Shown here piece after piece: positions 3,001 to 39,426 of a stretch of DNA of 42,346 nucleotides; positions within the stretch are counted from its first letter, which is position 1, and each line of letters begins with the position of its first letter. The stretch is from an uncultured Gammaproteobacteria bacterium. GTDB taxonomy: Bacteria > Patescibacteriota > Patescibacteriia > Magasanikbacterales > UBA922. The DNA lies in NCBI GenBank assembly GCA_965231005.1, contig OZ246405.1:431877-474222 (forward strand). Reading direction: 5' to 3'. The translations under genes and the position numbers were made by a program. The notes below the pieces were generated by a model. It was not told the origin of the DNA. It saw only the letters and a program-made list of their open reading frames with translations, and made no database searches.

Positions 3001-3034
3001 ATCTCTTATGATTGCTGGTGTGATTGAAATATAA
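2..3034 (+). CDS. Large hypothetical protein, 5'-truncated by the window edge (at least 1010 aa)
   Basis: The frame of ORF 77..3034 stays open back to nt 2 with no stop, so the TTG at 77 is probably internal. Composition is AT-rich host type. No family recognised. The TAA stop at 3032-3034 is followed by a repeat arm and a hairpin terminator. Confidence 0.6.
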   Translation, partial: PRPFYSAYKDGLLLINTLGGEKKDQLKKELKDRSRAAFKNHPGIFFLESEIVKQLFPPEKRIELTKEYLEGQHAADFLQALSYNIAYEADFEDPTFMVRDKDGVLQLDPSAVSLVPYPEIIPTIVEYLEKDPTPLLGFLEAEHDVSWDIIKQMGDVEVFYNTIIDRLTDSDFDMEGSIREYDAVIKDMVHSPDHLALLVRKLKDAPARKLTVKIFLSLHQALESLRQVGFAPGEELMRERDVESAVKRMEGEHYLDYEERDLEKEEKVRKQAVKELAGHEKARRRKSERAKVLEYDVPYQRALGALKELQAMTYTYYKAHPMELFSADDTIRDLDTFRSLAEKHYEEFAHLFPHQLYKLRDILPHRALANIQGDARLMAAFPNAIESAAGHKPLEMNRVDTEKALINPVKYYDWIEGYEFTEDDFYDNVIGYVSTYPLFEHVKKDLERIAKREQKQNGKDAELNYGDVDLEFEDIIIQLGVIKHHARKHGYEQALRGMDVEEQKELFPSLHIISLYDIDVPGIREDIIDIADYYDTFAIESFKQKMAEAIGEYFKQVFSIQEEISIDVSKIDSEMLRMLSLYLENPKVKDDSEIEQGCRELAKDILSGHFVSRRMWERDSVPSTDEERKKQVEILKEKGLIPKNITVDQYVAWTEDHEINFEEAFDVTNKGLRSGIQKIFRQSIVDHHIAEQDLQLDSVINLRKQNDILAPSADIDKRIKALIAEYPELKKNKTRKNAPQEAQDQLRELQKQKREFFADNMDEINEAKAWLYISYLKNITADELKRGHIYAGKTLVRFEQMFGGGDPPQPGLFKKVFQDTMPDFYNDLMRIYAMFESQQKILQGDQRVSSSTLDMTDKVDPAVYIAIGEDPVPSCQNYKNGSHSQGLLATVIDPNVKVIQLYDEKGLVARSVMRLMETQKGDPAIFIERSYSKNVHPKIDEAIVRYAKAKAAKIGAKVFSTELDGFVDDADSDEFFAVETLRAGTRATEIYSDAGADTGGSLMIAGVIEI

Positions 3035-3078
3035 AAAAGGCCGTAAATGCCGTAAAGGCTCAAAAGGCTTTAAAAGCA
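3034..3078. repeat. 9-bp-periodic repeat family, half copy A (AAAGGC-orientation arm only)
   Basis: Tandem 9-mers AAAAAGGCC GTAAATGCC GTAAAGGCT CAAAAGGCT TTAAAAGCA start at the stop codon of the giant ORF. Confidence 0.8.
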
Positions 3079-3084
3079 AAATAA

Positions 3085-3108
3085 AAATCCCTCTTTCGAG
3101 GGATTTTT
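3085..3108 (+). terminator. Rho-independent terminator of the giant ORF
   Basis: AAATCCCTC-TTTC-GAGGGATTT stem-loop followed by a T-run. An A-run upstream makes it potentially bidirectional. Confidence 0.7.
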
Positions 3109-3147
3109 AATCTGTCACTAAAAAGTAATTTACTTTTCATTGAAAGT

Positions 3148-3180
3148 GCCGGCACCAGAGAGAGTATCTCCAGTGCCGGC
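3148..3180 (-). terminator. GC-stem hairpin at the end of the deoC-ALDH cassette
   Basis: GCCGGCAC...GTGCCGGC 8-bp stem plus a 4-bp inner stem (AGAG/CTCT), 33 nt downstream of the ALDH stop. No clean U-run. It marks the AT to GC composition switch. Confidence 0.4.
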
Positions 3181-3212
3181 GCTCATTACGAGTTGCAAGA
3201 CTCAGTCAACGG

Positions 3213-5618
3213 CTACACACCGTACGGCACCCAGATCGTCTTGACCTGAACAGCCTGGCGCAGGACGTAGTCCTTGTTCGCGCCCTGCGGTCCGATCCAG
3301 TCGAAGGGCTTGTGGTGCGTCCACGTCCGCTTCATGTTGTGCTGCGATGCCGAGTTGATCTTGGCACAGGTCACGTCGCCGGTCCATGCCCAGATGGCAT
3401 TGACATCTTCGTGCTCAGCCAGCAGGATCGCGATCTTGTCAGGATCCTTTGCGGTCAGCAGGTTGATGACACCACCGGGGATGTCCGAATCCTGGATCAC
3501 GTCGATGAGGGTCTTGGCGCAGAGCGGGTGCTTGCCCGCGATGGTCACGACCGTGTTGCCCATGGCGATTGCCGGGGCGATCGAGTTGATCAGGCCCAAG
3601 AGCGGCCAGTCGTCCGGAGCACGGATGCCCAGAACACCGATCGGCTCGTTCACCGAGTTGACCAGGAACCGACCTGCGTTGACCTGCTGAACAGTGCCGC
3701 CGTGCTTGTCAGCGTAAGCAGCCCAGCGATACAGCCGTTCGATCGAGGTATCGACTTCACCTTCAGCCTCCACGATGCTGTATCCGGTCTGGATCATGAT
3801 CTCTGCGATCAGACGATCTCGATGCTCTTGCAGTTGCTCGGCGATGTAGAACAGGAGCTGTCCGCGCTGGTGTCCAGACTTCTTCTTCCACGCTCCGATC
3901 GCCTTGCGCGCTGCTTCCTCAGCATTGCGCACATCCTTGCGGTTGGCATCGCAGAACGCACCGATGAAGTTGGTGGTGCCGTAGAGACTGCTGTGAATCG
4001 GGAAGCTAGTACCACGATCGGCACGAACACGCTTACCACCCACGAGCATCTTGTGCGTCTTGTGCAGTTCGGGCGGACTCCAGATCACCTCCTTACCGTT
4101 GCTCGTGCCGATGTTGCGTTTTGACGGCTCGTTGAAGTCGAACTTGAGCACGTCTTCCATGCCAGCACGACCACCTTCGCGACCAAAGCCGCTCATGAGG
4201 TTGCCACCGAACGGGGCAGACGCGTCGAACACGTTGGCCGAGTTGATCCAGAACACGCCACAGTTCACAGCACTTGCAATGTGCATGGCCGTGTCGATAT
4301 CCTGGGACCAGACCGAGCCGGCCAGACCGTACTTGGTGTTGTTCGCCAGAGCAATCGCATCACTCGGACGCCGGAAGGTCATGACCGTCAGCACAGGGCC
4401 GAAGATCTCTTCGCGGACGACCGTGTCAGTCGGTTGCACACCCAGCAGAAGCGTGGGAGGCAGGAAACAACCGCCCACAGGGAGCGAACATCCTTCCGGC
4501 TGCCAGACAGTCGCACCTTCTCTTGGAGCGAGGTCGATCATGGTCTTGATGGTTGCGTACTGCTCCGGAGAGTTGATCGCACCCATGTCCACGCCCTTGT
4601 CGAGCGAATCACCCACGACCATTTTCTCGATGCGAGCCTTCAGCAGTCGGGTGAACTCGTCGGCAACGCTCTCCTGCACCAGGATTCGCGTGCCAGCGCA
4701 GCAGACATGGCCTTGGTTGAGAAAGCCGCCATCCATGACGCCTTCGACAGCTGCATGCAGATCAGCTTTTTCGCAGACGATGAACGGACCCTTGCCGCCA
4801 AGCTCCATGGTGAGCTTCTTGTCGGTCGACGCGGTCGCCTTGCGGATGATCTGTCCCACACCAGTGGAACCAGTGAAGGCCACCTTCCACGGGGTCGGGT
4901 GGTTCACGATCGTGGCACCAGTCTCGCCAGCACCTGTCACGATATTGATCACGCCCGGGGGCAGACCAACTTCCTGAATGATCTTGACGAAGCGGAGCAC
5001 GCTCAGTGAGGTTGTCTCAGCAGGTTTGATGACCACGGTGTTGCCCGCAGCGAGCGCCGGGGCAATCTTCCACACGAACATGAGCAGTGGGAAGTTCCAC
5101 GGAATGATCTGCGCGATCACACCACCGGGCTTGCGACCAGGGAACTCACTTTCGAGCACCTGGGCCCAGCCAGCGTGGTGGTACAGGTGCCGAACGCACA
5201 GCGGGATGTCGATGTCGCGGCTTTCACGAATCGGCTTGCCACCGTCACGCGATTCCACGACCGCGAGTTCACGCGCGTACTGCTGCAGAGCTCGGGCCAG
5301 GGCGATGAGATACTTTGCACGCATGAAGCCATCCTCTTTGTCGCTCCACTTCGGGAGCGCCTTTGCAGCGGCTTTCATCGCAAGGTCCACGTCGTCGGCA
5401 TTGCCCATGGCAATCTCAGCCAGAACTTCGCCGGTCGCAGGGGCAATCGTCTTGAAGTACGTCCCACTGCTGGGCTTGACCCACTTGCCGTTGATGAAGT
5501 GACCGAACTTGCCGTTGTGCTTCTTCAGCCATGCTCGCATGTCAGCGTCGCTTTCCGGAGCAGGTCCGAATGTGAGAGGTTGCAGTTTGCCGTTTTTGAT
5601 TGGTTGTTGGTTTCCCAT
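3213..5618 (-). CDS. Aldehyde dehydrogenase fusion: a complete ALDH domain plus a C-terminal truncated ALDH-like (cofactor-binding-type) domain, 801 aa, high-GC
   Basis: The N-terminal ~500 aa carry the ALDH motifs FTGSTGVG, MELGGKGP and GHVCCAGTR (catalytic Glu/Cys context). The C-terminal ~300 aa look ALDH-like (AWTGDV in place of FTGS) but lack an ELGGK or catalytic Cys segment. GGAGGAcacaATG SD. Lies 12 nt downstream of deoC. Confidence 0.85.
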   Translation of the reverse strand: MGNQQPIKNGKLQPLTFGPAPESDADMRAWLKKHNGKFGHFINGKWVKPSSGTYFKTIAPATGEVLAEIAMGNADDVDLAMKAAAKALPKWSDKEDGFMRAKYLIALARALQQYARELAVVESRDGGKPIRESRDIDIPLCVRHLYHHAGWAQVLESEFPGRKPGGVIAQIIPWNFPLLMFVWKIAPALAAGNTVVIKPAETTSLSVLRFVKIIQEVGLPPGVINIVTGAGETGATIVNHPTPWKVAFTGSTGVGQIIRKATASTDKKLTMELGGKGPFIVCEKADLHAAVEGVMDGGFLNQGHVCCAGTRILVQESVADEFTRLLKARIEKMVVGDSLDKGVDMGAINSPEQYATIKTMIDLAPREGATVWQPEGCSLPVGGCFLPPTLLLGVQPTDTVVREEIFGPVLTVMTFRRPSDAIALANNTKYGLAGSVWSQDIDTAMHIASAVNCGVFWINSANVFDASAPFGGNLMSGFGREGGRAGMEDVLKFDFNEPSKRNIGTSNGKEVIWSPPELHKTHKMLVGGKRVRADRGTSFPIHSSLYGTTNFIGAFCDANRKDVRNAEEAARKAIGAWKKKSGHQRGQLLFYIAEQLQEHRDRLIAEIMIQTGYSIVEAEGEVDTSIERLYRWAAYADKHGGTVQQVNAGRFLVNSVNEPIGVLGIRAPDDWPLLGLINSIAPAIAMGNTVVTIAGKHPLCAKTLIDVIQDSDIPGGVINLLTAKDPDKIAILLAEHEDVNAIWAWTGDVTCAKINSASQHNMKRTWTHHKPFDWIGPQGANKDYVLRQAVQVKTIWVPYGV

Positions 5619-5630
5619 TGTGTCCTCCGT

Positions 5631-6710
5631 CTAGCCCAGGGCCAGATGATCTGTGTTGGCGTAGCGGCCAGTTGCGTGGTGAGAGAGCTGTCGTTCCAGG
5701 TCAGTGACCAGACCACTCGCGCCAATGCGGAAGAGGTCCGGCTCTGCCCAACGATCGTCGAGCACTTCGAGCATGAGGGCCAGGTACGCGTACGCGTCCT
5801 TTGCAGTGCGAATGCCGCCGGCCGGCTTGAAACCGACCTTGAGTTCGCCGTCCGTCATGTCGAGGAAGCGCTTGATCTCGCGGACCATAACCAGGGAAAT
5901 CGGCAGCGTCGCATTGACGCTCGCAGTACCAGTGCTGGTCTTGATGGTGTCAGCGCCTGCCATGATGGCAATGGCCGAAACCTTCGCAGCCAGTTCGTAG
6001 TTCTGCAGGTCACCGGTCTCGATGATGGTCTTGAGCTTGGCACCTTCGCATGCTTCGCGCATGGCAGTGAACTCGTCGTACAGCGCCTTCCACTGACCGG
6101 TGATGGCCAGTTCGCGACGCGCAACCACGTCCACCTCAGTCGCACCCGCCTCGATCGACATTGCGATCTCACGGACCCGGGTCTCGAGCGGGGCTTGGCC
6201 GTGCGGGAATCCGGTCGACACAACTGCGATGGGCAGCCTGCCATTCAAGAACTCGACGGCTGCAGCCAGTTGGTGGTGGTACACGCAGATGGCGCCGGTG
6301 GTCAGCTTGCCGATGAGGTCTTCTCGGCCAATGCCAGCCAGGATGTCCGGACGAACCGGGTTCAGAGCCTTGTGGCAAAGACGCATCACACGACCAACCG
6401 TGTCATCGCCCTTCAGCGTGGTCAAATCAGTGCAGGCAATTGCGTGCAGAAGTGCATTGATCTGAGCAGCCTTCTTGAAAGGGCGCTTCTTCGGCAGGGT
6501 CGCAGTCCGTCGCTCGGTCGCGCTTCGGTTGGTCTGGATGCTGTTGACCAGCGCCAGGTCCAGCCCGATCGGCTTGTTCAGCTTCTTCTCGTCGTTCTTG
6601 TTCGGGGTTGCTTCAGCCTGACCGTTTCCGTCAGACGGTTTGGGCTTTCTTGAACGGCCGCCTTTGGCCGCTGTCCCGCTGTTGGCGGGAGGAGCTTGCG
6701 TGTCTTGCAT
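5631..6710 (-). CDS. deoC: Deoxyribose-phosphate aldolase (long form) with a low-complexity N-terminal extension, high-GC
   Basis: Motifs IKTSTGT and GFKPAGGIRT (the Schiff-base Lys contexts of the DERA family) and an overall TIM-barrel DERA-like sequence. The ~90-aa N-terminus is rich in K, P, G and N. GGAAGGAGAG-N9-ATG. Confidence 0.85.
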   Translation of the reverse strand: MQDTQAPPANSGTAAKGGRSRKPKPSDGNGQAEATPNKNDEKKLNKPIGLDLALVNSIQTNRSATERRTATLPKKRPFKKAAQINALLHAIACTDLTTLKGDDTVGRVMRLCHKALNPVRPDILAGIGREDLIGKLTTGAICVYHHQLAAAVEFLNGRLPIAVVSTGFPHGQAPLETRVREIAMSIEAGATEVDVVARRELAITGQWKALYDEFTAMREACEGAKLKTIIETGDLQNYELAAKVSAIAIMAGADTIKTSTGTASVNATLPISLVMVREIKRFLDMTDGELKVGFKPAGGIRTAKDAYAYLALMLEVLDDRWAEPDLFRIGASGLVTDLERQLSHHATGRYANTDHLALG

Positions 6711-6747
6711 TGTAATGAGCTCTCCTTCCTACCTTTTCGGGTCTAAC

Positions 6748-6811: not shown

Positions 6812-6840
6812 ACAGTATCAATTTTTTTGCTAAAAGTCAA
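6812..6840 (-). promoter_or_regulatory. Sigma70-type promoter of the deoC-ALDH cassette
   Basis: On the minus strand: TTGACT (6840-6835), a 17-nt spacer, TACTGT (6817-6812). It directly abuts repeat copy B. Confidence 0.55.
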
Positions 6841-6841
6841 C

Positions 6842-6966
6842 ATAAAAAAGGCCTTAAAAGCCATAAATGCCATAAAGGCTTAAAAAGCCCTTGTTTTAGA
6901 TTTGTTTTTGTATATAAAAAAGGCCTTTATGGCCTTTAAAGCTTTTAGAGCCTTTATAGCTTTTTA
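6842..6966. repeat. 9-bp-periodic inverted-arm repeat, full copy B
   Basis: Left arm AAAAAGGCC TTAAAAGCC ATAAATGCC ATAAAGGCT TAAAAAGCC. Spacer CTTGTTTTAGATTTGTTTTTGTATAT. Right arm AAAAGGCCTTTATGGCCTTTAAAGCTTTTAGAGCCTTTATAGCTTTTTA. Confidence 0.9.
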
Positions 6967-7437
6967 CTAATAATGGTACTTTTTTCCATTCAAAATCGTA
7001 CCAGCTCTGTATAATTGTTCTAAAAATACAACACGAACCATTTGATGGGGAAGAGTCATTTGAGAAAGGGACAGTTGGTGATTTGCCTTTTCTAATATTG
7101 ATTCATGAAGACCAAGTGGGCCACCAATCAAAAAGACTATTTTTTGACCACGCTCAGAATGTTCAGCAAGAAAAGATGAAAATTCAACTGATGTCATTTC
7201 TTTTCCTCGCTCATGAAGTGCAATAACCATATCAGCTTTTTTCAAATATGGAAGAAGTTTTTTTGCTTCTTGTTTTTTAATATCTTCAACATTGTCTGAA
7301 TCACGGAATGATTTTTCTGGAATTTCAACAACATCAATTTTTGCGTAAGACGTTAAACGCTTTAGATATTCTTTTGCACTTTCTTTCCAATATCCATCTT
7401 TTAGTTTTCCGAGTGCAACAATTTGAATGTTAAACAT
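6967..7437 (-). CDS. rlmH: 23S rRNA (pseudouridine1915-N3)-methyltransferase RlmH (SPOUT)
   Basis: 156 aa with the typical RlmH layout (MFNIQIVALGKLK..., C-terminal GKKYHY). Host-type AT-rich composition. No SD. Confidence 0.88.
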   Translation of the reverse strand: MFNIQIVALGKLKDGYWKESAKEYLKRLTSYAKIDVVEIPEKSFRDSDNVEDIKKQEAKKLLPYLKKADMVIALHERGKEMTSVEFSSFLAEHSERGQKIVFLIGGPLGLHESILEKANHQLSLSQMTLPHQMVRVVFLEQLYRAGTILNGKKYHY

Positions 7438-7558
7438 AAAAAATGCTTTAAATGCCGTAAAGGCTAAAAAGGCTTTAAACGCTCTTGAGTTTAACTGTAT
7501 TATTTTAGTAAAAGGCCTTTATGGCCTTTAAAGCTTTTAGAGCCTTTACAGCTTTTTA
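7438..7558. repeat. 9-bp-periodic inverted-arm repeat, full copy C
   Basis: The left arm starts immediately after the rlmH ATG. The 49-nt right arm (7510-7558) is identical to copy B (6918-6966) at 48 of 49 positions. Confidence 0.9.
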
Positions 7559-8086: not shown

Positions 8087-8207
8087 TAAAAAGCTGCAAA
8101 TGCCATAAAAGCTAAAAAGGCTTTAAAGGCTCTTGTACTAAATGATATAACATTGAATAAATGGCTTTAAGCCTTTATTGCATTTAAAACTTTTTAGACC
8201 TTTTAAG
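8087..8207. repeat. 9-bp-periodic inverted-arm repeat, full copy E (right arm degenerate)
   Basis: Left arm AAAAAGC TGCAAATGC CATAAAAGC TAAAAAGGC TTTAAAGGC TC. Right arm ATGGCTTTAAGCCTTTATTGCATTTAAAACTTTTTAGACCTTTTAAG. Confidence 0.8.
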
Positions 8208-8211
8208 ATAA

Positions 8212-8240
8212 TTGACACACACATATCTTTATGTTATTTT
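8212..8240 (+). promoter_or_regulatory. Sigma70-type promoter of the 238-aa orphan cassette
   Basis: TTGACA (8212-8217), 17-nt spacer, TATTTT (8235-8240), 5 nt downstream of repeat E. Confidence 0.55.
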
Positions 8241-8296
8241 ATGATACTGCTTTATAGCAGGATTTTCAACCCACCAAGAGGAAAAAAGGGGGTGGT

Positions 8297-9013
8297 ATGC
8301 ACTACGAAACTATTGAGGGAACAACCCACATTTACGTCGACGAGGGCGAAGATAGGGCGGCGGTTCTTCGAGCTCTTGTCTTGGCGTCATTCAACATGGC
8401 CAGGCCGTTTGGCCTGAGTCGTGTAGGATTTGCTACAGATTTCAGACTGACCGATGATCACGTTGGTCTATTCATTGAAGATACTGGTGATCCCAATTCT
8501 GGTTCACGCGTCGTTCGGATGGAGTACATCGACGGACGTCAGTGCGCAACCAGGATTTTCTCGCAAGGTGAGGGGCACTTCACACTTCAGAACACGGTTT
8601 TCGAGCCTGATCGTGGTGAGCCTGATCCCATGCTCGACTACGCGAAAAAGCTCCTTGCTGGCGTAGAAGTTTCGGATTTTCCGCTGACGACCCACATGTT
8701 CAAAGGACGGAGTCTTGAGCTCCGACTGCGAGAGTGGGGTATTGAGCGACAAGACGGCGAAGACGACTGGGCACTGCGTGGACGCGCTTTTCTGGCAATC
8801 TTCAAGCAGCGACCGGCGTTTGCATTCGAGCTCGTCATGGGCATGTGCCTGTCTGAGATGGATGAGATGGATCAGATCTTGTTCACGATCCTGATGACTG
8901 ACACTGCACATACGCCTGCTGGTCTCCAGCGCTTTGTCCGACAGTATGGGGAAGATCCACAGCCGGGTTGCGAATTCCGTGCTCAGGCAGCGCGTAGGCG
9001 AGCGCAGCAATAG
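8297..9013 (+). CDS. Hypothetical protein, 238 aa, high-GC orphan
   Basis: Long ORF with high-GC codon usage and a GGGGGTGG SD just before the ATG. No family recognised. Confidence 0.65.
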   Translation: MHYETIEGTTHIYVDEGEDRAAVLRALVLASFNMARPFGLSRVGFATDFRLTDDHVGLFIEDTGDPNSGSRVVRMEYIDGRQCATRIFSQGEGHFTLQNTVFEPDRGEPDPMLDYAKKLLAGVEVSDFPLTTHMFKGRSLELRLREWGIERQDGEDDWALRGRAFLAIFKQRPAFAFELVMGMCLSEMDEMDQILFTILMTDTAHTPAGLQRFVRQYGEDPQPGCEFRAQAARRRAQQ

Positions 9014-9033
9014 TCTCGATCAACAACCAACCA

Positions 9034-9079
9034 GCGCTGTTGTAGGAAATTTTCCAGGAGGGAAGTACTACAACAGCGC
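9034..9079 (+). terminator. 12-bp perfect stem hairpin after the 238-aa ORF
   Basis: GCGCTGTTGTAG (9034-9045) pairs with CTACAACAGCGC (9068-9079) around a 22-nt loop. No adjacent U-run, so terminator function is uncertain. Confidence 0.35.
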
Positions 9080-9136
9080 GCAACAAAAGCAGCTTTTAAA
9101 AGAAGGCTGTTTTTGTTTATATTCTATTCGTTATCA

Positions 9137-9165
9137 TTGACAAGACACCTTATCTTCTGTATGGT
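9137..9165 (+). promoter_or_regulatory. Sigma70-type promoter of the MFS cassette
   Basis: TTGACA (9137-9142), 17-nt spacer, TATGGT (9160-9165), inside a short AT-rich stretch between two GC-rich ORFs. Confidence 0.55.
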
Positions 9166-9219
9166 TCTTAAGAATCGTGCGTCATTTTGCGACCACGAAC
9201 GATCTTTCAGGAGGGCAAC

Positions 9220-10737
9220 ATGCTCAAGACAGCTTTGTGGACGTTTGTGTCCATTACGCTTGCTGCAGCTCCGGCGTTTGCAGCGGGTGGTGGGGACAAA
9301 CCCTGGTACACCGGCATTACGCCGATTCTCATTCTCTTGGCCACGATTGGTTTGGTCATCCTTCGCCTGCCTCAGGTCAAAGAGGAATTCGAAGGGCAGC
9401 TGGCCCATTTGCGCAACAGTGCGTTTCGACACCGGCGTGCCGTGAACTGGATTCTGCTGGGTCTGACCTACGCGTTCCTGTACTGGGGGCGCTACAACCT
9501 GAACCCGGCCATCTCTGCCATCGGCGGCAAGAGCATGGTTGCTGACTTCAACTGGGTCTTCGGTGCTGGCACAGCCGTATACGGCGCGTCGTTTCTCATC
9601 AATGGTCCGCTCACGGACAGACTCGGTGGTCGGTTTTCCATTCTCACAGGTGCCTTCGGCTCGATGATCATGAACGCACTCATGGGTGCTGCCTGTTGGG
9701 CAAGCTTGAACGGTCATATCGATTCAAAAGAACTGTTCTGGCTGCTCGTGTTTCTCTACCCGGCGAACATGTACTTCCAGTCCTTCGGCGCAGTCGCAAT
9801 CGTCAAGTGCAACTCAGCATGGTTCCATGTTCGAGAGCGTGGTGTGTTCGGAGCAATCTTCGGCATCATGATCTCCATGGGCATCTACTTTGCCTTTGAC
9901 TGGAGCTACTACATCGTTGGCAAGAGCGGACTGAACATGCCTGCGCACTGGGCGTTCATTGCTCCGGCTGCAGCACTCGGGATCATGTTTGTTTTCGACG
10001 TTTTTGTTGTGCGCAACCGTCCGAGCGAAGCAGGTCATGCTGACATCAACACTGGCGATGCAAGCTCTGGTGACACTGGTCCTGCAGACGGCGCGGTCGC
10101 TGTGTTCAAGCGCATGTTCACCAACCCTGTCATCATGACCATTGCCTGCATCGAGTTCTGCAGCGGCTTCCTGCGTCAGGCGATCATGCAGCAGTACCGG
10201 TTCTTCGCAAAGTTGACCGGGATTGCTGATTCGTTCGTCTACCAGAACTGGGGCCTGCTCCTATGCTGCGCTGGCATTCTCGGTGGTGTGTTCGCTGGCA
10301 CGATCTCTGATCACATGTTCAACTCCAGGCGCGGTCCTGTTGCTGGTGTGCTCTACATCGGCATGGTACTCGGAAGTGCTGGCATGTGTTTCTTGCTCGG
10401 TTCACCTGCGCTCGGCTGGCTCGTGATCTTCATGTCGTTCTGCGTCATTGGCGTGTATGGCATGCTCTCTGGTACAGCAAGTATGGATTTCGGCGGAAGC
10501 AAGAACGTGGGTATTGCTGTTGGTATTATCGACGGCTTTGTCTACGCTGGCACTGCGCTCCAGTCGATTCTGTACGCAACAACTCTGCCCAAGGCTGGCA
10601 CGGCAGCAGCAGCTGACCCGTCGAGCTGGTGGTTCTGGCCTGTTGCGATGATCCCGTTCGCAGTCATCGGCTTGCTCCTGGCCTACAAGATCCGCAACGC
10701 AAAACCCAAACCAAAACCCAAACTGGCAGCTGTCTAG
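9220..10737 (+). CDS. MFS transporter, organophosphate:Pi antiporter (GlpT/UhpC)-like, high-GC
   Basis: About 12 predicted hydrophobic spans. The N-terminal region YWGRYNLNPA...GASFLINGPLTDRLGGRF resembles the GlpT/UhpC signature region. I chose the ATG at 9220 (AGGAGGGcaacATG) rather than the track start 9187. Confidence 0.7.
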   Translation: MLKTALWTFVSITLAAAPAFAAGGGDKPWYTGITPILILLATIGLVILRLPQVKEEFEGQLAHLRNSAFRHRRAVNWILLGLTYAFLYWGRYNLNPAISAIGGKSMVADFNWVFGAGTAVYGASFLINGPLTDRLGGRFSILTGAFGSMIMNALMGAACWASLNGHIDSKELFWLLVFLYPANMYFQSFGAVAIVKCNSAWFHVRERGVFGAIFGIMISMGIYFAFDWSYYIVGKSGLNMPAHWAFIAPAAALGIMFVFDVFVVRNRPSEAGHADINTGDASSGDTGPADGAVAVFKRMFTNPVIMTIACIEFCSGFLRQAIMQQYRFFAKLTGIADSFVYQNWGLLLCCAGILGGVFAGTISDHMFNSRRGPVAGVLYIGMVLGSAGMCFLLGSPALGWLVIFMSFCVIGVYGMLSGTASMDFGGSKNVGIAVGIIDGFVYAGTALQSILYATTLPKAGTAAAADPSSWWFWPVAMIPFAVIGLLLAYKIRNAKPKPKPKLAAV

Positions 10738-10820: not shown

Positions 10821-10875
10821 GCCCCTGTGTTGTCGTACTCCCCAAAAGAGTGCGATGACCAGGGGTTTCTTTATT
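10821..10875 (+). terminator. Hairpin plus T-rich tail ending the MFS cassette
   Basis: GCCCCTG (10821-10827) pairs with CAGGGGT (10860-10866), followed by TTCTTTATTT. Smaller hairpins at 10778-10792 and 10793-10810 precede it. Confidence 0.45.
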
Positions 10876-10991
10876 TAAAAGCTGAAAAGGCTCTAAAAGC
10901 TTTAAAGGCCATAAAGGCCTTTTTTATATATGAAAATAGACAAAACAAGAGCTTTTAGCCTTTAAGGCATTTACGGCTTTTAAGGCCTTTT
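10876..10991. repeat. 9-bp-periodic inverted-arm repeat, full copy D (inverted relative to B and C)
   Basis: The left arm 10876-10924 is the reverse complement of the B right arm (46 of 49 identical). The spacer is similar to the reverse complement of the B spacer. The right arm reverse-complements to AAAAGGCCTTAAAAGCCGTAAATGCCTTAAAGGCTAAAAGCT, which resembles the B left arm. Confidence 0.9.
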
Positions 10992-10996
10992 GTTTA

Positions 10997-11025
10997 TTGA
11001 CTTTACCTAGAATTCATGCTACGTT
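10997..11025 (+). promoter_or_regulatory. Sigma70-type promoter of the PpnP-like cassette
   Basis: TTGACT (10997-11002), 17-nt spacer, TACGTT (11020-11025). The TTG start used by the ORF track is this -35 element. Confidence 0.55.
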
Positions 11026-11068: not shown

Positions 11069-11383
11069 ATGCCACATTCACAGATTCAACACACGCCATA
11101 CAGAGGCGGCGCAGTACAGTCTCTCAAGTTCGATCTCGAGTCCACTGGCGAGACCTGGTCTGTCGGCGTGATGACGCCTGGCGAGTGGAGGTTCGATGCA
11201 GAGGTCGACGAAGAACTTCGCATCGTCGTCGGTTCGCTCGTCGATGGGCGCTTCAACACGACGCACGCGTGGAACGACAACCCGTTCCTTCGTCTCATTC
11301 CTGCCGGGACTTCGGTCACGTTCGTGTGCGAAGACAACGTGGCCTACACCTGCAAGTACGGCACCGAGCCCAGTCAGGCCTGA
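11069..11383 (+). CDS. ppnP: Pyrimidine/purine nucleoside phosphorylase PpnP-like (DUF1255, cupin), high-GC
   Basis: Aligns by eye to remembered E. coli PpnP/YaiE: Y.G.V.S..F...STG..SVGVM..GE..F.......E....V.GSL and C-terminal AYTCKY versus SYLCRY. About 104 aa. AGGGGGtagcATG. Confidence 0.7.
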   Translation: MPHSQIQHTPYRGGAVQSLKFDLESTGETWSVGVMTPGEWRFDAEVDEELRIVVGSLVDGRFNTTHAWNDNPFLRLIPAGTSVTFVCEDNVAYTCKYGTEPSQA

Positions 11384-12477: not shown

Positions 12478-13131
12478 ATGTCAACTCAGCAGCCTGTCCA
12501 CGTCACAGCAATCGTATTTCTTCAGGATGTGCTTGGCATCTCTGATCTTGATGTCATTGGCAAATGGCTTGGACGCAAGTCCATTGCTCGGGAAACCGTC
12601 CTTGTAGTTTATCCTGACATTACGTTGCAAGTAAAGGATACTGGCCAGTGGATTCAGTCGACTCCATTCAGAAGTACAGCTGCACCGTACGCGCGCATCG
12701 GTGGTGGTAGCGGATCCAAAAGACAAGCCAAATGTTGGGCTCTTGCTCAAGAACACAAAATTCCCGAACAGAGCAGCACAGCTACTGTTGTATCAAACCT
12801 TTGTTTTTCTCCGGGTGTTCGAGTTGATACTCTCGAGGAGTTGCCCGACGGCAGAGTGCTATTTCAGGGCGAGGACGACAGGTGGCAAGTAGCCTACGAG
12901 TGGGGAATGCATGAACCAGGACAAGGCTGGAGTGGTTGTGAGTGCATCTTCCGTTCGTTTTCGATTTACATACTCATGAGGAATGGTTTTGGTCGGAGAA
13001 CCAATGAGGAACACGGCGCTTGGGATTCCAAGGACGAGGCAATCGAAGCGACAGATGGCGTGCTTCAACTGAAGGAACAGAAACAGTTTCACGAACGAGG
13101 TCGGCCGCGCGTTCCAGATCTCAAGTTCTAA
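12478..13131 (+). CDS. Hypothetical protein, 217 aa, high-GC orphan
   Basis: The ATG at 12478 is preceded by AAGGAGGcatc. GC-rich codons. No family recognised. The track start 12430 lies in the AT-rich promoter. Confidence 0.6.
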   Translation: MSTQQPVHVTAIVFLQDVLGISDLDVIGKWLGRKSIARETVLVVYPDITLQVKDTGQWIQSTPFRSTAAPYARIGGGSGSKRQAKCWALAQEHKIPEQSSTATVVSNLCFSPGVRVDTLEELPDGRVLFQGEDDRWQVAYEWGMHEPGQGWSGCECIFRSFSIYILMRNGFGRRTNEEHGAWDSKDEAIEATDGVLQLKEQKQFHERGRPRVPDLKF

Positions 13132-17289: not shown

Positions 17290-17547
17290 ATGGCGCCAGG
17301 ATTTTCAAAATTCAAAATCGGTGACAAGGTGCGTCCAGAACCAGGCCAGACTTGGGCGTTTGGAAAGGACTTTCCGAAACGCACATTCTGGGACTGGCTG
17401 TTTCGCAGACCAAAGCCGGTCTACACGGTTGTGTCCAGCAGGTACCAAGAACCACGGTGCCAGATTGGCGGGACCTACACGACCATCGAAGGACATGACG
17501 GCGAACAGTACGAACTTCCAGACTGCTTCATCGTGAAGGCGGCGTAG
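17290..17547 (+). CDS. Hypothetical protein, 85 aa, high-GC orphan
   Basis: AGGAGGGccacATG. GC-rich ORF bounded by AT-rich DNA and a good terminator. No family recognised. Confidence 0.55.
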   Translation: MAPGFSKFKIGDKVRPEPGQTWAFGKDFPKRTFWDWLFRRPKPVYTVVSSRYQEPRCQIGGTYTTIEGHDGEQYELPDCFIVKAA

Positions 17548-18922: not shown

Positions 18923-19303
18923 AATGCCTTAAACAAATTATCACACGCACAGTTTTGATGAAGAATCATCAACACAATGTGGTTGATAATACCGATACGA
19001 AAGAAACAGTCTGATCATTACAATTCAACGCAAAGCAACAAACCAAAAAATAAAGTGAAACAAAGAAAACAATTATGTGTTTTCGTAGTGCGCAATTCAA
19101 GAGCGTATGGTGGATGCCTAGACACGTTTTGACGATGAAGGACGTAGTAACCTGCGATAAGCCTCGGTAAGGTGGTAAACAACCTTTGACCCGGGGATTT
19201 CCGAATGGGGGAACCCAGCTCGAGTAATGTCGAGTTACCTCAAATTTATTTGAGGGGAAGACCTAGCGAAGTGAAACATCTCAGTAGCTAGAGAAAAAGA
19301 AAA

Positions 19304-19390
19304 CAAAAAAAGCTTCTTTTATAACCATTCTTCTGGTTACTGTTTCGAGCCCTCGGGCAAGAGACAGCAACCATTAGATTGGTTCAGAAG
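19304..19390 (+). other. Insertion of about 80 nt in 23S domain I
   Basis: Between GAGAAAAAGAAA and GATTCCGTAAGTAGTGGCGAGCGAA, E. coli has about 9 nt and this sequence has about 90 nt. It contains the hairpin GGTTACTGTTTCGAGCCCTCGGGCAAGAGACAGCAACC. Confidence 0.6.
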
Positions 19391-19393
19391 TGT

Positions 19394-19424
<31 letters not shown>

Positions 19425-22171: not shown

Positions 22172-22283
<112 letters not shown>

Positions 22284-22668
22284 CTATCTGCTGTGTGCGT
22301 TGAATAGTGAGGAAACTCGCCCCTAGTACGAGAGGACCGGGGTGGACAAACCTCTGGTGTACCAGTTGTCCTGCCAAGGGCATTGCTGGGTAGCTAAGTT
22401 CGGTACGGATAAGCGCTGAAAGCATCTAAGTGCGAAGCCGTTTCCAAGATTACTATTCATTTGAGATACCTTCGAGACGAGGAGGTTGATAGGCACTAGG
22501 TGTACGCCCCAAAAGGTGTAGCCGAGGTGTACTAATATATCGAGTGTACTACGAAAACACAGAGTTGTTTTTGACTCACATTATTTGCTTGTCCTGAGCG
22601 ATCTGGCCTAAAGGCCAGAGAGTCGAAGGATTGTTTACAATATTATTTTACTCGAACTGAGTATAGAA

Positions 22669-23595: not shown

Positions 23596-23603
23596 GATAG
23601 ATT
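23575..23603 (+). promoter_or_regulatory. Promoter of the 118-aa orphan cassette, overlapping the preceding terminator
   Basis: TTGACA (23575-23580, spanning the stem end and the loop of the terminator), 17-nt spacer, TAGATT (23598-23603). Confidence 0.45.
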
Positions 23604-23634
23604 TGTCGCAACAAACCAACCAAGGGGGTGAGAA

Positions 23635-23991
23635 ATGCCAAGCGCAAAAGCGAAGAACAAGAAGGATTGTTCGCTCCAAGATCTCCAGGCTGTGGATCTG
23701 ATCTGTTGGGACCCTGACACCAAGGGGCTCAAGATGAGTGGACCGGCCGGTCTGACGATCTTCTGGGGCGATGACGACAAGCGAGTCATGAGCACCTCGT
23801 ACGACGCAATGGTCGTGGTGCAGATCATGCAGGTCGTCACGGGGCAACAGTTCGTTCGTGTTCCGAACCAGCCGGTGTTCACGCCTGGTCATGTCAAGAC
23901 CGATGTCCAGTGGGAGCGCGAAGACCGACGCAAGCAGAAGGGCGACGAGCCCGAGCCGGAGCCCGAGCAGGCCGTTGGTGCGCCTGCGTAG
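23635..23991 (+). CDS. Hypothetical protein, 118 aa, high-GC orphan
   Basis: GGGGGTGagaaATG. GC-rich ORF with an acidic E/P-rich C-terminal tail. No family recognised. Confidence 0.55.
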   Translation: MPSAKAKNKKDCSLQDLQAVDLICWDPDTKGLKMSGPAGLTIFWGDDDKRVMSTSYDAMVVVQIMQVVTGQQFVRVPNQPVFTPGHVKTDVQWEREDRRKQKGDEPEPEPEQAVGAPA

Positions 23992-24020
23992 TTCACAACC
24001 AAACACAAGCAAGGGAGGCA

Positions 24021-24053
24021 AAGCCCCCGGATTCCAGTGGAAAACGGGGGCTT
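24021..24053 (+). terminator. GC-stem hairpin ending the 118-aa cassette
   Basis: AAGCCCCCG (24021-24029) pairs with CGGGGGCTT (24045-24053). The T-run lies about 12 nt further on (24065-24070). Confidence 0.5.
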
Positions 24054-24069
24054 GTCTATTGGTTATTTT

Positions 24070-27415: not shown

Positions 27416-27700
27416 ATGTCAGACGAGCAATTTGAGCAAATAAAAACAGCTGTTCTCTCACACATGAGATCAGTATTTGAGCAAATGGAAGAAGAGGCTC
27501 ACATGTCTCACGAAGAAAAGTATGCACTGCTTGAAGATGTGCTGGAACAAGCAACAGATCACGACGAGCTTCGTGTTGCTTTTGAGCAATGGTACAAAGA
27601 TCATGCAGATAATCTTGAATTAGAATTTGCGTCTGACGAATTATGGGATCATGCTATCAATAAAGACGAGTCAGAAGAGGATGAAGAGGGTGAATGGTAA
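27416..27700 (+). CDS. Small acidic hypothetical protein (94 aa)
   Basis: Intact ORF with host composition. No family recognised. Confidence 0.4.
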   Translation: MSDEQFEQIKTAVLSHMRSVFEQMEEEAHMSHEEKYALLEDVLEQATDHDELRVAFEQWYKDHADNLELEFASDELWDHAINKDESEEDEEGEW

Positions 27701-27805
27701 AAAAAGGCTGTAAAAGCCGTAAATGCTAAAAAAGCCATAAAGGCTTTTTTAAATTTGCTTCTATGGCTTTTAGGGCCTTTAGAGCCTTTTAGGCCTTTTA
27801 AAAAA
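27699..27805. repeat. 9-bp-periodic inverted-arm repeat, full copy F (short spacer)
   Basis: Left arm AAAAAGGC TGTAAAAGC CGTAAATGC TAAAAAAGC CATAAAGGC. 12-nt spacer. Right arm ATGGCTTTT AGGGCCTTT AGAGCCTTTT AGGCCTTTT. Confidence 0.85.
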
Positions 27806-32695: not shown

Positions 32696-32779
32696 TAGAA
32701 CACAGATTTAACAGATCAAACGGATTGGAACGGATTTGATCTGCGAAAATCTTAGATAATCCTGGAAATCTGTGTTCTA
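32696..32779 (+). other. 84-nt nested inverted-repeat structure (candidate structured RNA or protein-binding site)
   Basis: The outer perfect 14-bp IR is TAGAACACAGATTT (32696-32709) / AAATCTGTGTTCTA (32766-32779). The inner 9-bp stem is CAGATCAAA (32712-32720) / TTTGATCTG (32735-32743). No U-run follows. Confidence 0.5.
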
Positions 32780-32802
32780 TCTAACAGAGGAATAATTAAT
32801 AT

Positions 32803-32850
32803 GGTTTGCTTTTATGGCATTTAAAGCCTTTAAAGCATTTTCAGCCTTTT
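32803..32850. repeat. 9-bp-periodic repeat family, half copy G (GCCTTT-orientation arm only)
   Basis: TGGTTTGCT TTTATGGCA TTTAAAGCC TTTAAAGCA TTTTCAGCC TTTT, ending 5 nt before the HAD ATG. Confidence 0.75.
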
Positions 32851-35399: not shown

Positions 35400-35403
35400 G
35401 TGT

Positions 35404-36600: not shown

Positions 36601-36604
36601 TAGT

Positions 36605-38428
36605 ATGTGTGGAATCATTGGTTACATTGGACCTAAAAAAGCAACACCAATTTTGTTAAATGGCTTGCGTCGTTTAGAATATCGTGGCTATGACAGTGCA
36701 GGAATTGCTGTATTTCGCGATGGAGAAATTGCGAGTGTTAAAGTTGTGGGAAAAATTGAAGCACTTACAGAAAAAGCAAGTTTATATTCTCATGAAGCAA
36801 CGATTGGTATTGCGCATACTCGTTGGGCAACGCATGGTGGTGTGACAGAGGAAAATGCACATCCACACATTGTTATGGATGGAAAACTTGCACTTGTTCA
36901 CAACGGTATTATTGAAAACTATCGAGAAATTCGCGAAAAACTTGGAGATGCATATACATATACATCGCAAACAGACTCAGAAGTTCTTGCACATCTTATT
37001 GCTTCTCATTATAACGGCGATCTAAAACAAGCAGTCAAAGGAGCACTGCAACATGTTCGCGGAACATATGGCATTGTTGTGATGCACAAAGATCATCCAG
37101 ATCTTCTTATTGCTGCACGCATGGGAAGTCCACTTGTTATTGGTATGAATGAAGACGAATATTTCATTGCAAGTGATGCCACACCAATTTTAGGTCATAC
37201 AAAAAAAGTTATGTTCCTTGATGATGGAGAAGTCGCTGAAATTTCTTTAAACGGTGTACAAACATTTAATTTAAAAGACGAACATGTTGTAAAATGTGTT
37301 GAACAAATTGAATGGGATGATGCACAAGCAGAAAAACAAGGGTTTGATCACTTCATGTTAAAAGAAATTCATGATCAGCCAACAGTATTTAAAGATGCTA
37401 TTCGTGGACGGTATGATCTAGAAGAAGGAACAGCACATTTAGGTGGGCTAAACATGACTGAACAAGAAATGCAAAATATCGAACGGATTATTCTCATCGC
37501 CTGTGGAACAGCAAGTTATGCTGCCATGGTTGGAAAGTATGCATTTGAACGACTTGCAGGAATCCCAACAGAAGTTGATATTGCAAGTGAATTTCGTTAT
37601 AGAGATCCAATTATTAACAAAAATACATTGGTATTTGGTATTTCCCAATCTGGTGAAACTGCAGATACCATTGCTGCACTTAGAGAAGCAAAACGGAAGG
37701 GTGCGTATGTTCGCGGTATTGTAAATGTTGTTGGCTCCACAATAGCAAGAGAAACAGATGGTGGAACATATATTCATGCTGGACCAGAGCTTGCTGTTGC
37801 ATCTACAAAAGCCTATACAAACATGATTGCTATTCTTCTTCTGTATGCAATTGAATTTGGAAGAATCAAACGTGTAACACTTGCAACAGGACAGCGACTA
37901 TTGAACGCGCTTATTGAAATTCCAGAAAAGATGAAAAGTATTTTGGAACAAGATGAACACATTAAAAAGATCGCAGAAAAATATAAAGACATGAAAAATT
38001 GTTTCTTCCTTGGTCGAGGAAATAATTTCCCAGTTGCTCTGGAAGGTTCATTGAAACTAAAAGAAATTTCTTACATTCACAGTGAAGCATATCCAGGAGG
38101 TGAAATGAAACACGGACCAATTGCATTGTTGTCAGAAACATTCCCAGTCATTGCAATCATGACAAAGAATCAATTATACGACAAAATGAGAAGCAACATA
38201 GAAGAAGCAAAAGCCCGGAAAGCAAAAATGATTCTTATTGCAACAGAAGGAGATGAATCTGCAAAAGAATTATCAGATGATGTAATTTATGTTCCGGCAA
38301 CAATGGAATTATTACAACCATTATTAAATTCAATTATCTTACAGCTATTTGCGTATCACATTTCTGTTGCACTTGGTCGAGATGTAGATAGGCCAAGGAA
38401 TTTGGCAAAGTCAGTCACTGTTGAATAA
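36605..38428 (+). CDS. glmS: Glutamine--fructose-6-phosphate aminotransferase
   Basis: MCGIIGY N-terminal nucleophile, two SIS domains (GISQSGETADT), C-terminal AKSVTVE. Confidence 0.95.
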   Translation: MCGIIGYIGPKKATPILLNGLRRLEYRGYDSAGIAVFRDGEIASVKVVGKIEALTEKASLYSHEATIGIAHTRWATHGGVTEENAHPHIVMDGKLALVHNGIIENYREIREKLGDAYTYTSQTDSEVLAHLIASHYNGDLKQAVKGALQHVRGTYGIVVMHKDHPDLLIAARMGSPLVIGMNEDEYFIASDATPILGHTKKVMFLDDGEVAEISLNGVQTFNLKDEHVVKCVEQIEWDDAQAEKQGFDHFMLKEIHDQPTVFKDAIRGRYDLEEGTAHLGGLNMTEQEMQNIERIILIACGTASYAAMVGKYAFERLAGIPTEVDIASEFRYRDPIINKNTLVFGISQSGETADTIAALREAKRKGAYVRGIVNVVGSTIARETDGGTYIHAGPELAVASTKAYTNMIAILLLYAIEFGRIKRVTLATGQRLLNALIEIPEKMKSILEQDEHIKKIAEKYKDMKNCFFLGRGNNFPVALEGSLKLKEISYIHSEAYPGGEMKHGPIALLSETFPVIAIMTKNQLYDKMRSNIEEAKARKAKMILIATEGDESAKELSDDVIYVPATMELLQPLLNSIILQLFAYHISVALGRDVDRPRNLAKSVTVE

Positions 38429-38434
38429 TTATAT

Positions 38435-39394
38435 ATGAGTAAAGACAAAAAAAATGTTGTTGTCGTTGGTGGGGGGAATGGAAGTGCGACGTCTATTCGT
38501 GCGCTGAAGGCATACAAAGATGACTTTAATATTTCAACCGTTGTGTCTACAAGTGACTCCGGCGGTTCTTCTGGTCGCCTTAGAAAAGAATTTAATACAT
38601 TGCCAACTGGTGATATTTTGCGTGCAGTACTTGCACTTTCATCGCAAGATTATCGAACACTGAAACATATTTTTTATGGAAAACGGTTTGATGGAGTTGG
38701 AAAATTAGATAAACACAATCTTGGTAATTTATTTCTTGTGTTTGCAGAGCAGTATGATGGTAGTTTTATGCATGCGCTTCGTGCACTTGAACAGTCCCTC
38801 GATGCTGTGGGTCATGCGCATCCTATGACACTTGAACAATCTGATCTTTGTGTTGAAATGACAGACGGAACAATCGTTTGTGGTGAGCATGAAATTGATA
38901 GGCCAACAGATGGTGGAAGTTCAAGAATAAAACGAGCATGGCTTGATCCAGAACCAACACTTTATCCAGAAGCAAAAAAGGCAATCGAAGAAGCTGATTA
39001 CATTATTTTTGGTCCAGGAAGTTTGTATTGCAGTATTATTCCAAATTTATTAGTAAAGGGAATGCAAGAGGCAATTGAAAAATCAAATGCAATTCTTGGA
39101 TACATTGCAGGAAATGCATATGAAACAAAAGGTGAGCGCGGTCCAGAAACATTGTGTGAATTCATTGACGCTTTGGAAGAATATTTACCACGTCAACTTG
39201 ACTGTACTGTATACAATAATCATGTATTATCTGAATCAGATATAAAAAAATATAAACAAAAGGAGTGGACACCGATTATATATGATGAAGACGCATGTAA
39301 GAAACACAAAATTATTCAAGGTGACTATGAAAAAACATATGGTGGGCTTGATATTGATCGTCTTGGTGCGTTGTTTCAGGATTGTATAGAATAA
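38435..39394 (+). CDS. YvcK/CofD-family gluconeogenesis-factor-like protein
   Basis: VVVGGGNGS, SDSGGSSGRLR, GPGSLYCSIIPNLLV, typical of the UPF0052/YvcK family. Confidence 0.8.
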   Translation: MSKDKKNVVVVGGGNGSATSIRALKAYKDDFNISTVVSTSDSGGSSGRLRKEFNTLPTGDILRAVLALSSQDYRTLKHIFYGKRFDGVGKLDKHNLGNLFLVFAEQYDGSFMHALRALEQSLDAVGHAHPMTLEQSDLCVEMTDGTIVCGEHEIDRPTDGGSSRIKRAWLDPEPTLYPEAKKAIEEADYIIFGPGSLYCSIIPNLLVKGMQEAIEKSNAILGYIAGNAYETKGERGPETLCEFIDALEEYLPRQLDCTVYNNHVLSESDIKKYKQKEWTPIIYDEDACKKHKIIQGDYEKTYGGLDIDRLGALFQDCIE

Positions 39395-39426
39395 AACGCA
39401 AAAAGGCTAAAAGGCCAAAAGGTCTC
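39394..39426. repeat. 9-bp-periodic repeat family, short half copy H
   Basis: AAAACGC AAAAAGGC TAAAAGGC CAAAAGGTC starts at the stop codon of the yvcK-like gene. Unit length here is 8-9 bp. Confidence 0.6.

Follow-up and report, generated by a model that had tools for sequence, protein, structure and literature searches.

What are the repeats that recur between the genes of an uncultured Magasanikbacterales bacterium, and from what kind of element do they derive? The question is raised by a stretch of 42,346 nucleotides (assembly GCA_965231005.1, contig OZ246405.1, positions 431,877 to 474,222), hereafter the window, in which an earlier reading of the DNA letters, termed here the sequence-only reading, had described eight copies of an intergenic repeat built from tandem 9-bp units. 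A full copy comprises an arm of AAAGGC-type units, a spacer and an arm of complementary GCCTTT-type units. We propose that these repeats are gene-less copies, akin to miniature inverted-repeat transposable elements (MITEs), of a hairpin element resembling the intervening sequences (IVSs) of 23S rRNA. The gene that such copies would have lost encodes a PF05635/TIGR02436 protein, annotated as ‘23S rRNA intervening-sequence protein’ and abbreviated here as IVP, a four-helix bundle that resembles Avd of diversity-generating retroelements (PMC10053308).

The repeats are present at all eight places described, both by inspection of the sequence and with our own arm detector, and Tandem Repeats Finder, run independently, reports arrays of period 9 there. 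Four consecutive AAADGCNNN units are matched 19 times in the window and three consecutive units 30 times, versus no match to either pattern in 100 dinucleotide-preserving shuffles of the window, and none of the matches lies outside the eight places. The window thus holds five full copies (B, C, E, D and F) and three single arms (A, G and H), and gene-less copies occur at a density of about one per 5 kb. The arms at 6918-6966 and 7510-7558 are identical at 48 of 49 positions, as had been noted; for the inverted arm of copy D the figure of 46/49 was also reproduced, its range being 10875-10923, one nucleotide away from that given. Aligned in register, the two arms of a copy are complementary at 26-32 of 45 positions (58-71%), against about 65-70% in the sequence-only reading. 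The behaviour of an abundant intergenic family, compared earlier to that of MITEs and repetitive extragenic palindromic (REP) sequences, is borne out by copy counts and by differences in presence and absence. The repeat, which the sequence-only reading had not recognised, is not a named family of Rfam 15: at the gathering threshold the window passes only for the large-subunit (LSU) and 5S rRNA genes, and in a permissive comparison of the elements with Rfam 15 the best score was 32 bits against a threshold of 63, all matches being to generic hairpin families.

The evidence for a gene-carrying form comes from 620 kb of DNA of Candidatus Magasanikbacteria, a lineage of the Candidate Phyla Radiation (CPR), the loci of which are numbered with the prefix L. 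At L178 a 116-residue open reading frame (ORF) is inserted between atpA and atpG: the atpA stop codon lies inside the left arm, which is followed by TTT and the ATG of the ORF, while the G of the ORF’s TAG stop codon already belongs to the right arm, and ACT then separates this arm from the atpG ATG. The product matches PF05635 with an E value of 4e-36. Together with the ORFs of L152 and L138, it defines a range of E values of 1e-34 to 1e-36, with bAvd matched more weakly, and the L152 protein also matches NCBIfam TIGR02436, ‘four helix bundle protein’ (E 4e-34). In L152 and L138 the IVP gene lies between AAADGC arms or elements. In L198 it is located between the genes for pyruvate kinase (PK) and pyruvate phosphate dikinase (PPDK) and in L202 beside that for L28, both with five-unit AAADGC arms. 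A large protein collection holds a further IVP homologue between atpD and atpC. L109 presents the same PK/PPDK junction as L198 in a gene-less state, with an unusually long spacer of 140 nt, in which a stretch of 68 nt matches the 3′ part of the L198 IVP ORF at 85% identity (E 1e-11), in inverted orientation. This remnant and the shared arms indicate that gene-less copies arise from gene-carrying ones.

Traces of the interior may also persist elsewhere. Some gene-less copies keep a TGTGA/CTTG motif beside one arm, and a related GTGA-containing motif follows the left arm in the IVP-carrying L198 and L202. The inner motif is opposite in direction to the flanking host genes in 11 of 12 such gene-less copies and co-directional in the IVP-carrying copies examined. 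Inversion by recombination between the arms is a possible origin of both the inverted inner motif and the L109 remnant.

Within the 620 kb, 220 arms were detected, which constitute 103 full copies (86 unique) and 14 single arms. Exactly five units are found in 162 of the 220 arms. The 9-bp unit has the consensus Y-W-R-A-A-A-D-G-C, with AAA conserved at 97-100% and GC at 98-99%, and position D is taken by G, A or T and hardly ever by C. Spacers mostly measure 12-17 nt, the longest exceeding 200 nt; about 20 copies lack a spacer, their arms being fused at a shared GC. The 86 unique full copies are typically 80-125 bp long, with inverted ends and no coding capacity, and so have the size and copy number of MITEs. 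The two-armed pattern was matched in 75 metagenome contigs. In a scan of one genome per species most of the matches listed were due to chance or to Lys/Ala codons, so that only two-armed matches are informative, and all of the latter that were listed belong to Candidatus Magasanikbacteria or to the unclassified ‘Patescibacteria group’ metagenome-assembled genome (MAG) STC_93. The AAADGC family is lineage-wide in Candidatus Magasanikbacteria. No copy was found among 2.9 million IMG/VR viral contigs, and a search of the literature on Magasanikbacteria repeats, TIGR02436 and PF05635 revealed no description of this architecture.

The association of IVP genes with tandem units extends beyond the AAADGC motif, as every PF05635 gene examined is bracketed by short tandem-unit arrays, with motifs and periods that vary from locus to locus (Table 1). 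An IVP gene of Pedobacter lies between fadB-like and thiolase genes and is accompanied by NNNTTAG units, and CAAGGGG-type units surround an IVP gene of Elusimicrobia. Motif divergence tracks protein divergence roughly, not strictly. Junctions that hold a gene-less AAADGC copy in one genome hold a GAC- or AGTTC-type IVP element in relatives. Occupied and empty sites were also identified: the flanks of L193 and L174 share more than 90% identity, and between them L193 contains an element where L174 has a stop codon, about 6 nt and an ATG; moreover, one site holds a full copy in L152 and a half copy in L138. Together with L198/L109, these pairs reveal insertion polymorphism of the kind known for MITEs. 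A second kind of small gene uses the same sites with a similar architecture, as indicated by L022 (1824-2364), where a TIGR04256 ‘GxxExxY’ gene of 137 codons with long TTCGAA-rich inverted repeats occupies a junction at which four related genomes hold a gene-less AAADGC copy. L198 contains, in addition to its AAADGC arms, a gene-less hairpin of TACGAA-type 7-8-bp units (1385-1470) between a TATAAT box and the pyruvate kinase gene; thus, several unit families coexist in one genome.

These observations can be combined in a single scheme, to which, with the processing and binding roles outlined below, we give as a whole a probability of roughly 60%. The complete element would comprise a left arm of about five 9-bp units, an IVP gene and a right arm formed by the inverted array, and would occupy the junction between a stop codon and the next start codon or promoter, including those of conserved operons such as atp. 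Loss of the internal gene would leave arm, spacer and arm, as in the window. That the repeats are derivatives of an IVS-like element is, in our assessment, likely. The element would be transcribed with its neighbours and its hairpin would be cut out or processed by RNase III, as in the 23S rRNA IVS. Under this proposal RNase III processing would make an insertion into an operon harmless; co-transcription and tolerance by this route, suggested by analogy, is a tentative idea to which we give somewhat less than even odds. The 23S IVS of Coxiella is described as selfish; RNase III cuts the stem formed by its 28-bp terminal inverted repeats, and its ORF for S23p, a protein without known function whose Xanthomonas homologue is a homopentameric toroid, is preceded by three to four tandem GACAGAT heptamers in strain-variable number (PMC4990558). 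The solved relatives of the Magasanikbacteria IVP, 2gsc (E 3e-18) and 2rld, contain five chains each. A pentameric IVP would bind a five-unit array, e.g. (AAAGGCNNN)5, with one subunit per unit. The periodic protein-binding lattice put forward by the sequence-only reading remains a live idea, for which IVP is now a concrete candidate protein; nevertheless, that the five-unit arrays are putative IVP binding sites, recognised one subunit per unit and acted upon in trans in gene-less copies, appears rather unlikely at present. A broader generalisation is held to be just as doubtful: PF05635 proteins may be sequence-specific ring proteins on arrays of about five units, defining a widespread and hitherto overlooked class of elements that insert precisely at stop-start junctions of housekeeping operons and in rRNA helices of many phyla, with gene-less arrays acted on in trans and maybe co-opted as operon-boundary signals in CPR bacteria, where Shine-Dalgarno sites are lacking.

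Several results weigh against the origin proposed here or against parts of it. An IVP gene was not detected in the window by tblastn, and its copies are all devoid of an ORF. The L193/L174 pair shows no target-site duplication, although the AT-rich ends leave one of 1-2 bp possible. Around IVP genes the unit count ranges from 3 to 11, mostly about five, so that five is the mode and, outside the AAADGC family, no rule. In L212, from a Salinivirgaceae MAG (Bacteroidota; 1050-1700), about ten GATCACC heptamers stand on each side as direct and not inverted arrays. IVP paralogues that are 70-76% identical differ in motif (L208 vs L198), and the co-variation of protein and motif is consequently only rough. 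To our knowledge, neither a part in mobility nor sequence-specific binding has been demonstrated for PF05635 proteins. The hairpins of native copies are less stable than chimeric ones (mean -38.4 vs -40.4 kcal/mol, p = 2e-4), and the sense RNA is not favoured, its mean folding energy being -36.8 versus -38.6 kcal/mol for the antisense strand (p = 0.04); there is thus no sign of selection on a sense RNA hairpin, which weakens the RNase III part of the proposal. Finally, purely selfish DNA should decay, while here the framework of the units is kept and copies persist for long, which argues that some function for the host, or frequent gene conversion, contributes as well.

What is maintained in these copies was analysed in four pairs of orthologous copies, which show a difference at 1 of 175 framework sites, compared with 18 of 119 variable sites. 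A mutual adaptation of the two arms for pairing was rejected, as the variable sites match at 6.3 of 17 positions versus 7.4 with shuffled partners (p < 2e-4, in the wrong direction), and no long perfect hairpin is conserved in the family, as anticipated. With the framework conserved and the pairing of arms not, it is the periodic framework and the length of each arm that are maintained, not a helix. Complementarity between arms is slightly avoided, perhaps because perfect palindromes, or structure near start codons, are selected against. A messenger RNA panhandle, in which 5′ and 3′ arms flanking one gene would pair, gave a difference that is not significant (n = 18; -38.6 vs -37.0 kcal/mol, p = 0.11).

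These data bear directly on the best surviving alternative, in which the repeats would be host-serving hairpins at messenger RNA boundaries, comparable to REP sequences, bacterial interspersed mosaic elements (BIMEs) or enterobacterial repetitive intergenic consensus (ERIC) sequences, that protect the transcript segments on either side from exonucleases, attenuate or terminate transcription or tune the relative expression of cistrons such as those of atp, with IVP an occasional passenger in the loop. The elements are indeed predicted to fold as long imperfect hairpins (-24 to -48 kcal/mol, z -1.4 to -6.3), a long stem that they share with IVSs, and their location fits such a role. Among the 70 copies with a called gene on each side, the two neighbours are co-directional for 61, divergent for 8 and convergent for 1 (background 446, 51 and 54). 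A stop codon is found 0-8 nt before the AAAGGC arm, sometimes inside it, and the GCCTTT arm ends 3-7 nt before an ATG, single arms following the same strand rule as full copies. Copies lie between the cistrons of the ATP synthase operon and also beside dnaB, and the same junction can be occupied in different genomes even where the flanking proteins share only 45-55% identity. The stop-side arms of copies B and D, located at the ends of transcription units, form a hairpin followed by T6 that scores as terminator-like, as in an intrinsic terminator; in copy B this is the small hairpin AAAGGCCATAAAGGCCTTT. However, convergent gene pairs, which need terminators most, are depleted (1/70 vs about 10% of the background), and there is no covariation, the arms of one copy pairing worse than chimeras and sense RNA being no more stable than antisense. 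Boundary hairpins also leave unexplained why AAA-N-GC is invariant, why C is avoided at position D, why the unit count is fixed at five and why single arms exist, as well as why unrelated motifs with the same architecture surround IVP genes in several phyla. We judge this alternative to be improbable, at about one third of the weight that we attach to the above scheme as a whole.

The relation of the arms to promoters and ribosome-binding sites was also inspected. Among copies without an abutting upstream gene, about 12 of 17 have, by our own count, a -10 box at a distance of 2-22 nt before the left arm, in many cases TGnTATAAT, and in these the whole element constitutes the predicted 5′ untranslated region (UTR), ending 3-7 nt before the ATG. 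By eye, a TTGACA-like -35 box lies 6-10 nt past some right arms (copies B, E, D and F; L022, L109, L123 and L133), of which a scan confirmed only that of copy E. A promoter in the spacer or arms was rejected as a general feature, since a -10 motif common to the spacers is lacking and about 20 copies are without any spacer. A read-through peptide encoded by the units was likewise discarded, the frame relative to the upstream stop codon varying between copies by inspection. Shine-Dalgarno sequences are not used by the host, GGAG or GAGG being present at -20 to -4 in only 28 of 546 genes (native genes of the window and of L018-L193). Sequences before its start codons are AT-rich (…ATATATG, …TACATATG). 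IVP genes inside elements often carry AAGGAGG or AAGGGGG (L202, L205, L210, L211). The GCCUUU arm as an alternative Shine-Dalgarno site was dismissed, because most genes have no arm and the host does not use such sites; the arm is therefore not a ribosome-binding site.

A second alternative, which we consider quite improbable, holds that a double-stranded DNA-binding protein unrelated to IVP, such as a nucleoid-associated or ribbon-helix-helix protein, occupies five 9-bp sites per arm and insulates or regulates the adjacent genes, by analogy with omega, ParG and MetJ on tandem 7-8-bp boxes or with ParR on two sets of five iterons. The conservation of each arm on its own, with invariant framework and exact spacing next to an inter-arm spacer that varies from 0 to more than 40 nt, is what such a lattice would display, and so are the arms that end 6-10 nt upstream of a -35 box. 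Against it, the arms have no fixed position relative to promoters, being found before -35 boxes, just after -10 boxes, between cistrons and after stop codons by terminators, and no candidate protein besides IVP is known. Furthermore, stop-side and start-side arms differ: TTG precedes unit 2 in 6 of 34 stop-side arms versus 28 of 55 start-side arms, and start-side arms are poorer in G on the sense strand than stop-side arms at variable positions. Such differences point to strand-specific constraints at the RNA level. A weaker variant invokes intrinsic curvature from phased A-tracts, which the sequence-only reading had predicted; on geometric grounds we find it unlikely, as a 9-bp period is about 1.5 bp per unit off the helical phase, so that the bends would largely cancel instead of adding up in a plane.

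A third possibility, that the elements are attC-like sites of an integron and that A-B-C-E-D is a cassette array capturing high-GC foreign genes, is very remote. The elements are indeed imperfect inverted repeats of 105-125 bp, and the five copies at 3-11 kb separate five gene blocks, three of them foreign-looking (53-61% GC, strong Shine-Dalgarno sequences). Across loci, however, genes of anomalous GC content are not enriched beside arms (odds ratio 1.1, p = 0.84). The blocks do not share one orientation, and copies are found within core operons (atp) and beside dnaB. None of 20 scanned window ORFs is an integrase, and the arms consist of tandem 9-mers, R″-L″/L′-R′ boxes with a GTTRRRY core not being seen by inspection.

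The derivation from IVP-carrying hairpin elements places the window repeats between several known systems. Like the 23S rRNA IVSs of Leptospira, Coxiella and the Xanthomonas type, which are regarded as selfish and possibly mobile (PMC4990558), the family described here has terminal inverted repeats that enclose a PF05635 gene or nothing, gene-less and decaying versions, and short tandem repeats by the ORF. In contrast, its copies lie between protein genes or in UTRs, the arms consist wholly of about five 9-bp units, and the gene-less copies have multiplied. No arm was found within the 23S rRNA gene of the window (19084-22555); lying outside 23S rRNA and having no ORF, the window repeats are not filed as IVSs proper. 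With MITEs such as Correia/NEMIS elements and the Rickettsia palindromic elements (RPE) they have in common a short length (about 100-125 bp), inverted ends, the absence of coding sequence, abundance, intergenic location, presence/absence polymorphism and derivation from a longer gene-carrying form by internal deletion. They differ in that the PF05635 gene of the longer form is no known transposase, no target-site duplication was seen, the arms are made of tandem units, and the framework is conserved in place with persistence across deep divergence. REP/BIME, ERIC and the BOX elements of pneumococci are likewise modular extragenic imperfect palindromes, usually transcribed and located between cistrons or after stop codons. 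The present repeats share no sequence similarity with these elements, consist of 9-bp YWRAAADGC units, lack a GTAG head, and do not have their arm complementarity kept by selection; a RAYT transposase, the associate of REP units, was not found, no search aimed at it having been made. Mycobacterial interspersed repetitive units (MIRUs) and the short tandemly repeated repetitive (STRR) sequences of cyanobacteria are short tandem units in intergenic regions of operons that abut stop and start codons; they are direct tandem arrays, unlike the inverted pairs observed here, and have no associated PF05635 gene. TRAP (trp RNA-binding attenuation protein) and HutP form homo-oligomeric rings in which each subunit binds one of a series of short, evenly spaced RNA repeats. 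They offer a functional analogy only: the number of repeats equals that of ring subunits, five in the present case, and few positions per unit are conserved, while the protein is unrelated, the period is 7-9 instead of 5-7 nt, and the binding by IVP is putative, to RNA or to DNA. IVSs themselves are known; what is new is the intergenic, multiplied and gene-less variant of an IVS-like element.

The coordinates of the window copies and the unit motifs found at other loci are collected in Table 1.

Table 1. Features of the window, with arms as delimited by our own detector, and tandem-unit motifs of other loci.
Feature	Position	Structure or unit motif	Arms	Spacer	Period	Remark
Copy A	3036-3077	single arm, five AAADGC units				starts 1 nt past the stop codon of ORF 77-3034 (+)
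Copy B	6847-6964	full	6847-6888, 6923-6964	34 nt		
Copy C	7441-7556	full	7441-7482, 7515-7556			
Copy E	8089-8203	full	8089-8130, 8163-8203			
Divergent promoter-like pair beside copy E	8212-8269					consensus scan only
Copy D	10877-10990	full, inverted	10877-10918, 10958-10990			
Copy F	27703-27798	full	27703-27744, 27757-27798	12 nt		
Second tandem-unit hairpin	32697-32786	four ACRGAT-type units facing four ATCYKN-type units		none		minimum free energy -28.8 kcal/mol
Copy G	32808-32849	single GCCTTT-type arm				ends 5 nt before the ATG at 32855
Copy H	39394-39423	single degenerate arm, four units			8-9 bp	
L131		GACNNNN, 5 and 5 units			7 bp	
L161		AGTTCNN			7 bp	
L164		AGCAGANNN			9 bp	
L168		CCATTGTN			8 bp	
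L203		ACGAKGC			9 bp	
L205		GAADGC			9 bp	
L208		RGGCTTAC			9 bp	

The copies had been called strictly intergenic, which is nearly so: at related loci some arms extend 10-19 nt into the 3′ end of the ORF upstream and provide its stop codon. Their occurrence in both orientations says less than it may seem to, since a full copy reads AAAGGC arm, spacer and GCCTTT arm on either strand. Copy A is followed by a canonical bidirectional terminator (3082-3109). Copy B, on the minus strand, lies between the rlmH stop codon (6967) and a TTGACT box resembling a -35 element (by eye), upstream of high-GC genes for DeoC and aldehyde dehydrogenase. Copy C is fitted between the stop codon of a GNAT gene (7560) and the rlmH ATG (7437), both on the minus strand, with 3 nt on each side. 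The left end of copy E is 4 nt from the ATG of the GNAT gene (8084, minus strand), and just to its right stand back-to-back sigma-70-like promoters, TTGACA-17-TATTTT on the plus strand (8212-8240) and TTGAAA-17-TATCAT on the minus strand (8269-8241), which place copy E inside the predicted 5′ UTR of the GNAT mRNA. Copy D follows the terminator of a high-GC gene of the major facilitator superfamily (MFS) and precedes the next gene block. Copy F begins 2 nt past the stop codon of ORF 27416-27700 and is followed by TTGCAC-17-TATATT (by eye) upstream of an operon for fructose-bisphosphatase (FBPase). Copy H overlaps the stop codon of the CofD gene, and the next ATG is located 25 nt further on.

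Copies B and D are inverted duplicates of each other, about 90% identical over about 150 bp that include the spacer and the adjacent TTGACT box. The duplicated module (6833-7004 vs 10840-11004) faces outward from the segment that contains rlmH, GNAT, copy E and the MFS/high-GC genes, and the boxes of B and D would each drive a foreign-looking gene block. The pair may have arisen by duplication of an element-plus-promoter module or by inversion. A second tandem-unit hairpin, absent from the sequence-only reading, follows the TrmB gene directly and shortly precedes copy G; its architecture is alike and its unit motif different. The ACRGAT-type unit of this hairpin resembles the Coxiella IVS heptamer GACAGAT.

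High-GC genes (50-61% vs about 35% for the host) are located at 3213-6710, 8297-10737, 11069-11383, 12478-13131 and 17290-17547. They include genes for a DeoC-type aldolase, an aldehyde dehydrogenase, an MFS transporter and a Ppnp-like protein, all carry strong Shine-Dalgarno sequences (GGAGG, AGGAGG), and they have the appearance of genes gained recently by horizontal transfer. Two independent ENA assemblies (L194, L195) show this arrangement too, so that the assembly is not chimeric. Three of the foreign-looking blocks adjoin copies in the window, an association that is absent across loci. The 23S rRNA gene measures 3472 nt against a model of 2925 nt, which corresponds to insertions of about 550 nt, and is followed by the 5S gene (region to 22776). 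The window has no 16S gene, the rRNA genes being unlinked. With these rRNA features and about 35% GC, the window looks like DNA of the CPR. One of the 23S insertions may correspond to a GC-rich nested hairpin (20959-21075), and the insertions contain no related arms. Downstream of the 5S gene, a region at 23600-24069 displays 53-65% GC, a CGAGCC hexamer repeat (23946-23968) and ORFs on both strands.

No function has been assigned to the ORF carried by 23S IVSs since its first description in the early 1990s. In one family the repeat number is held at five and matches a five-subunit ring, and the function of PF05635 proteins thereby becomes testable. IVS-like elements are not confined to rRNA, as they are found in core operons (atp, fad, PK/PPDK) of CPR bacteria, Bacteroidota and Elusimicrobia. 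For annotation, the arrays mark operon junctions in organisms that lack a Shine-Dalgarno signal.

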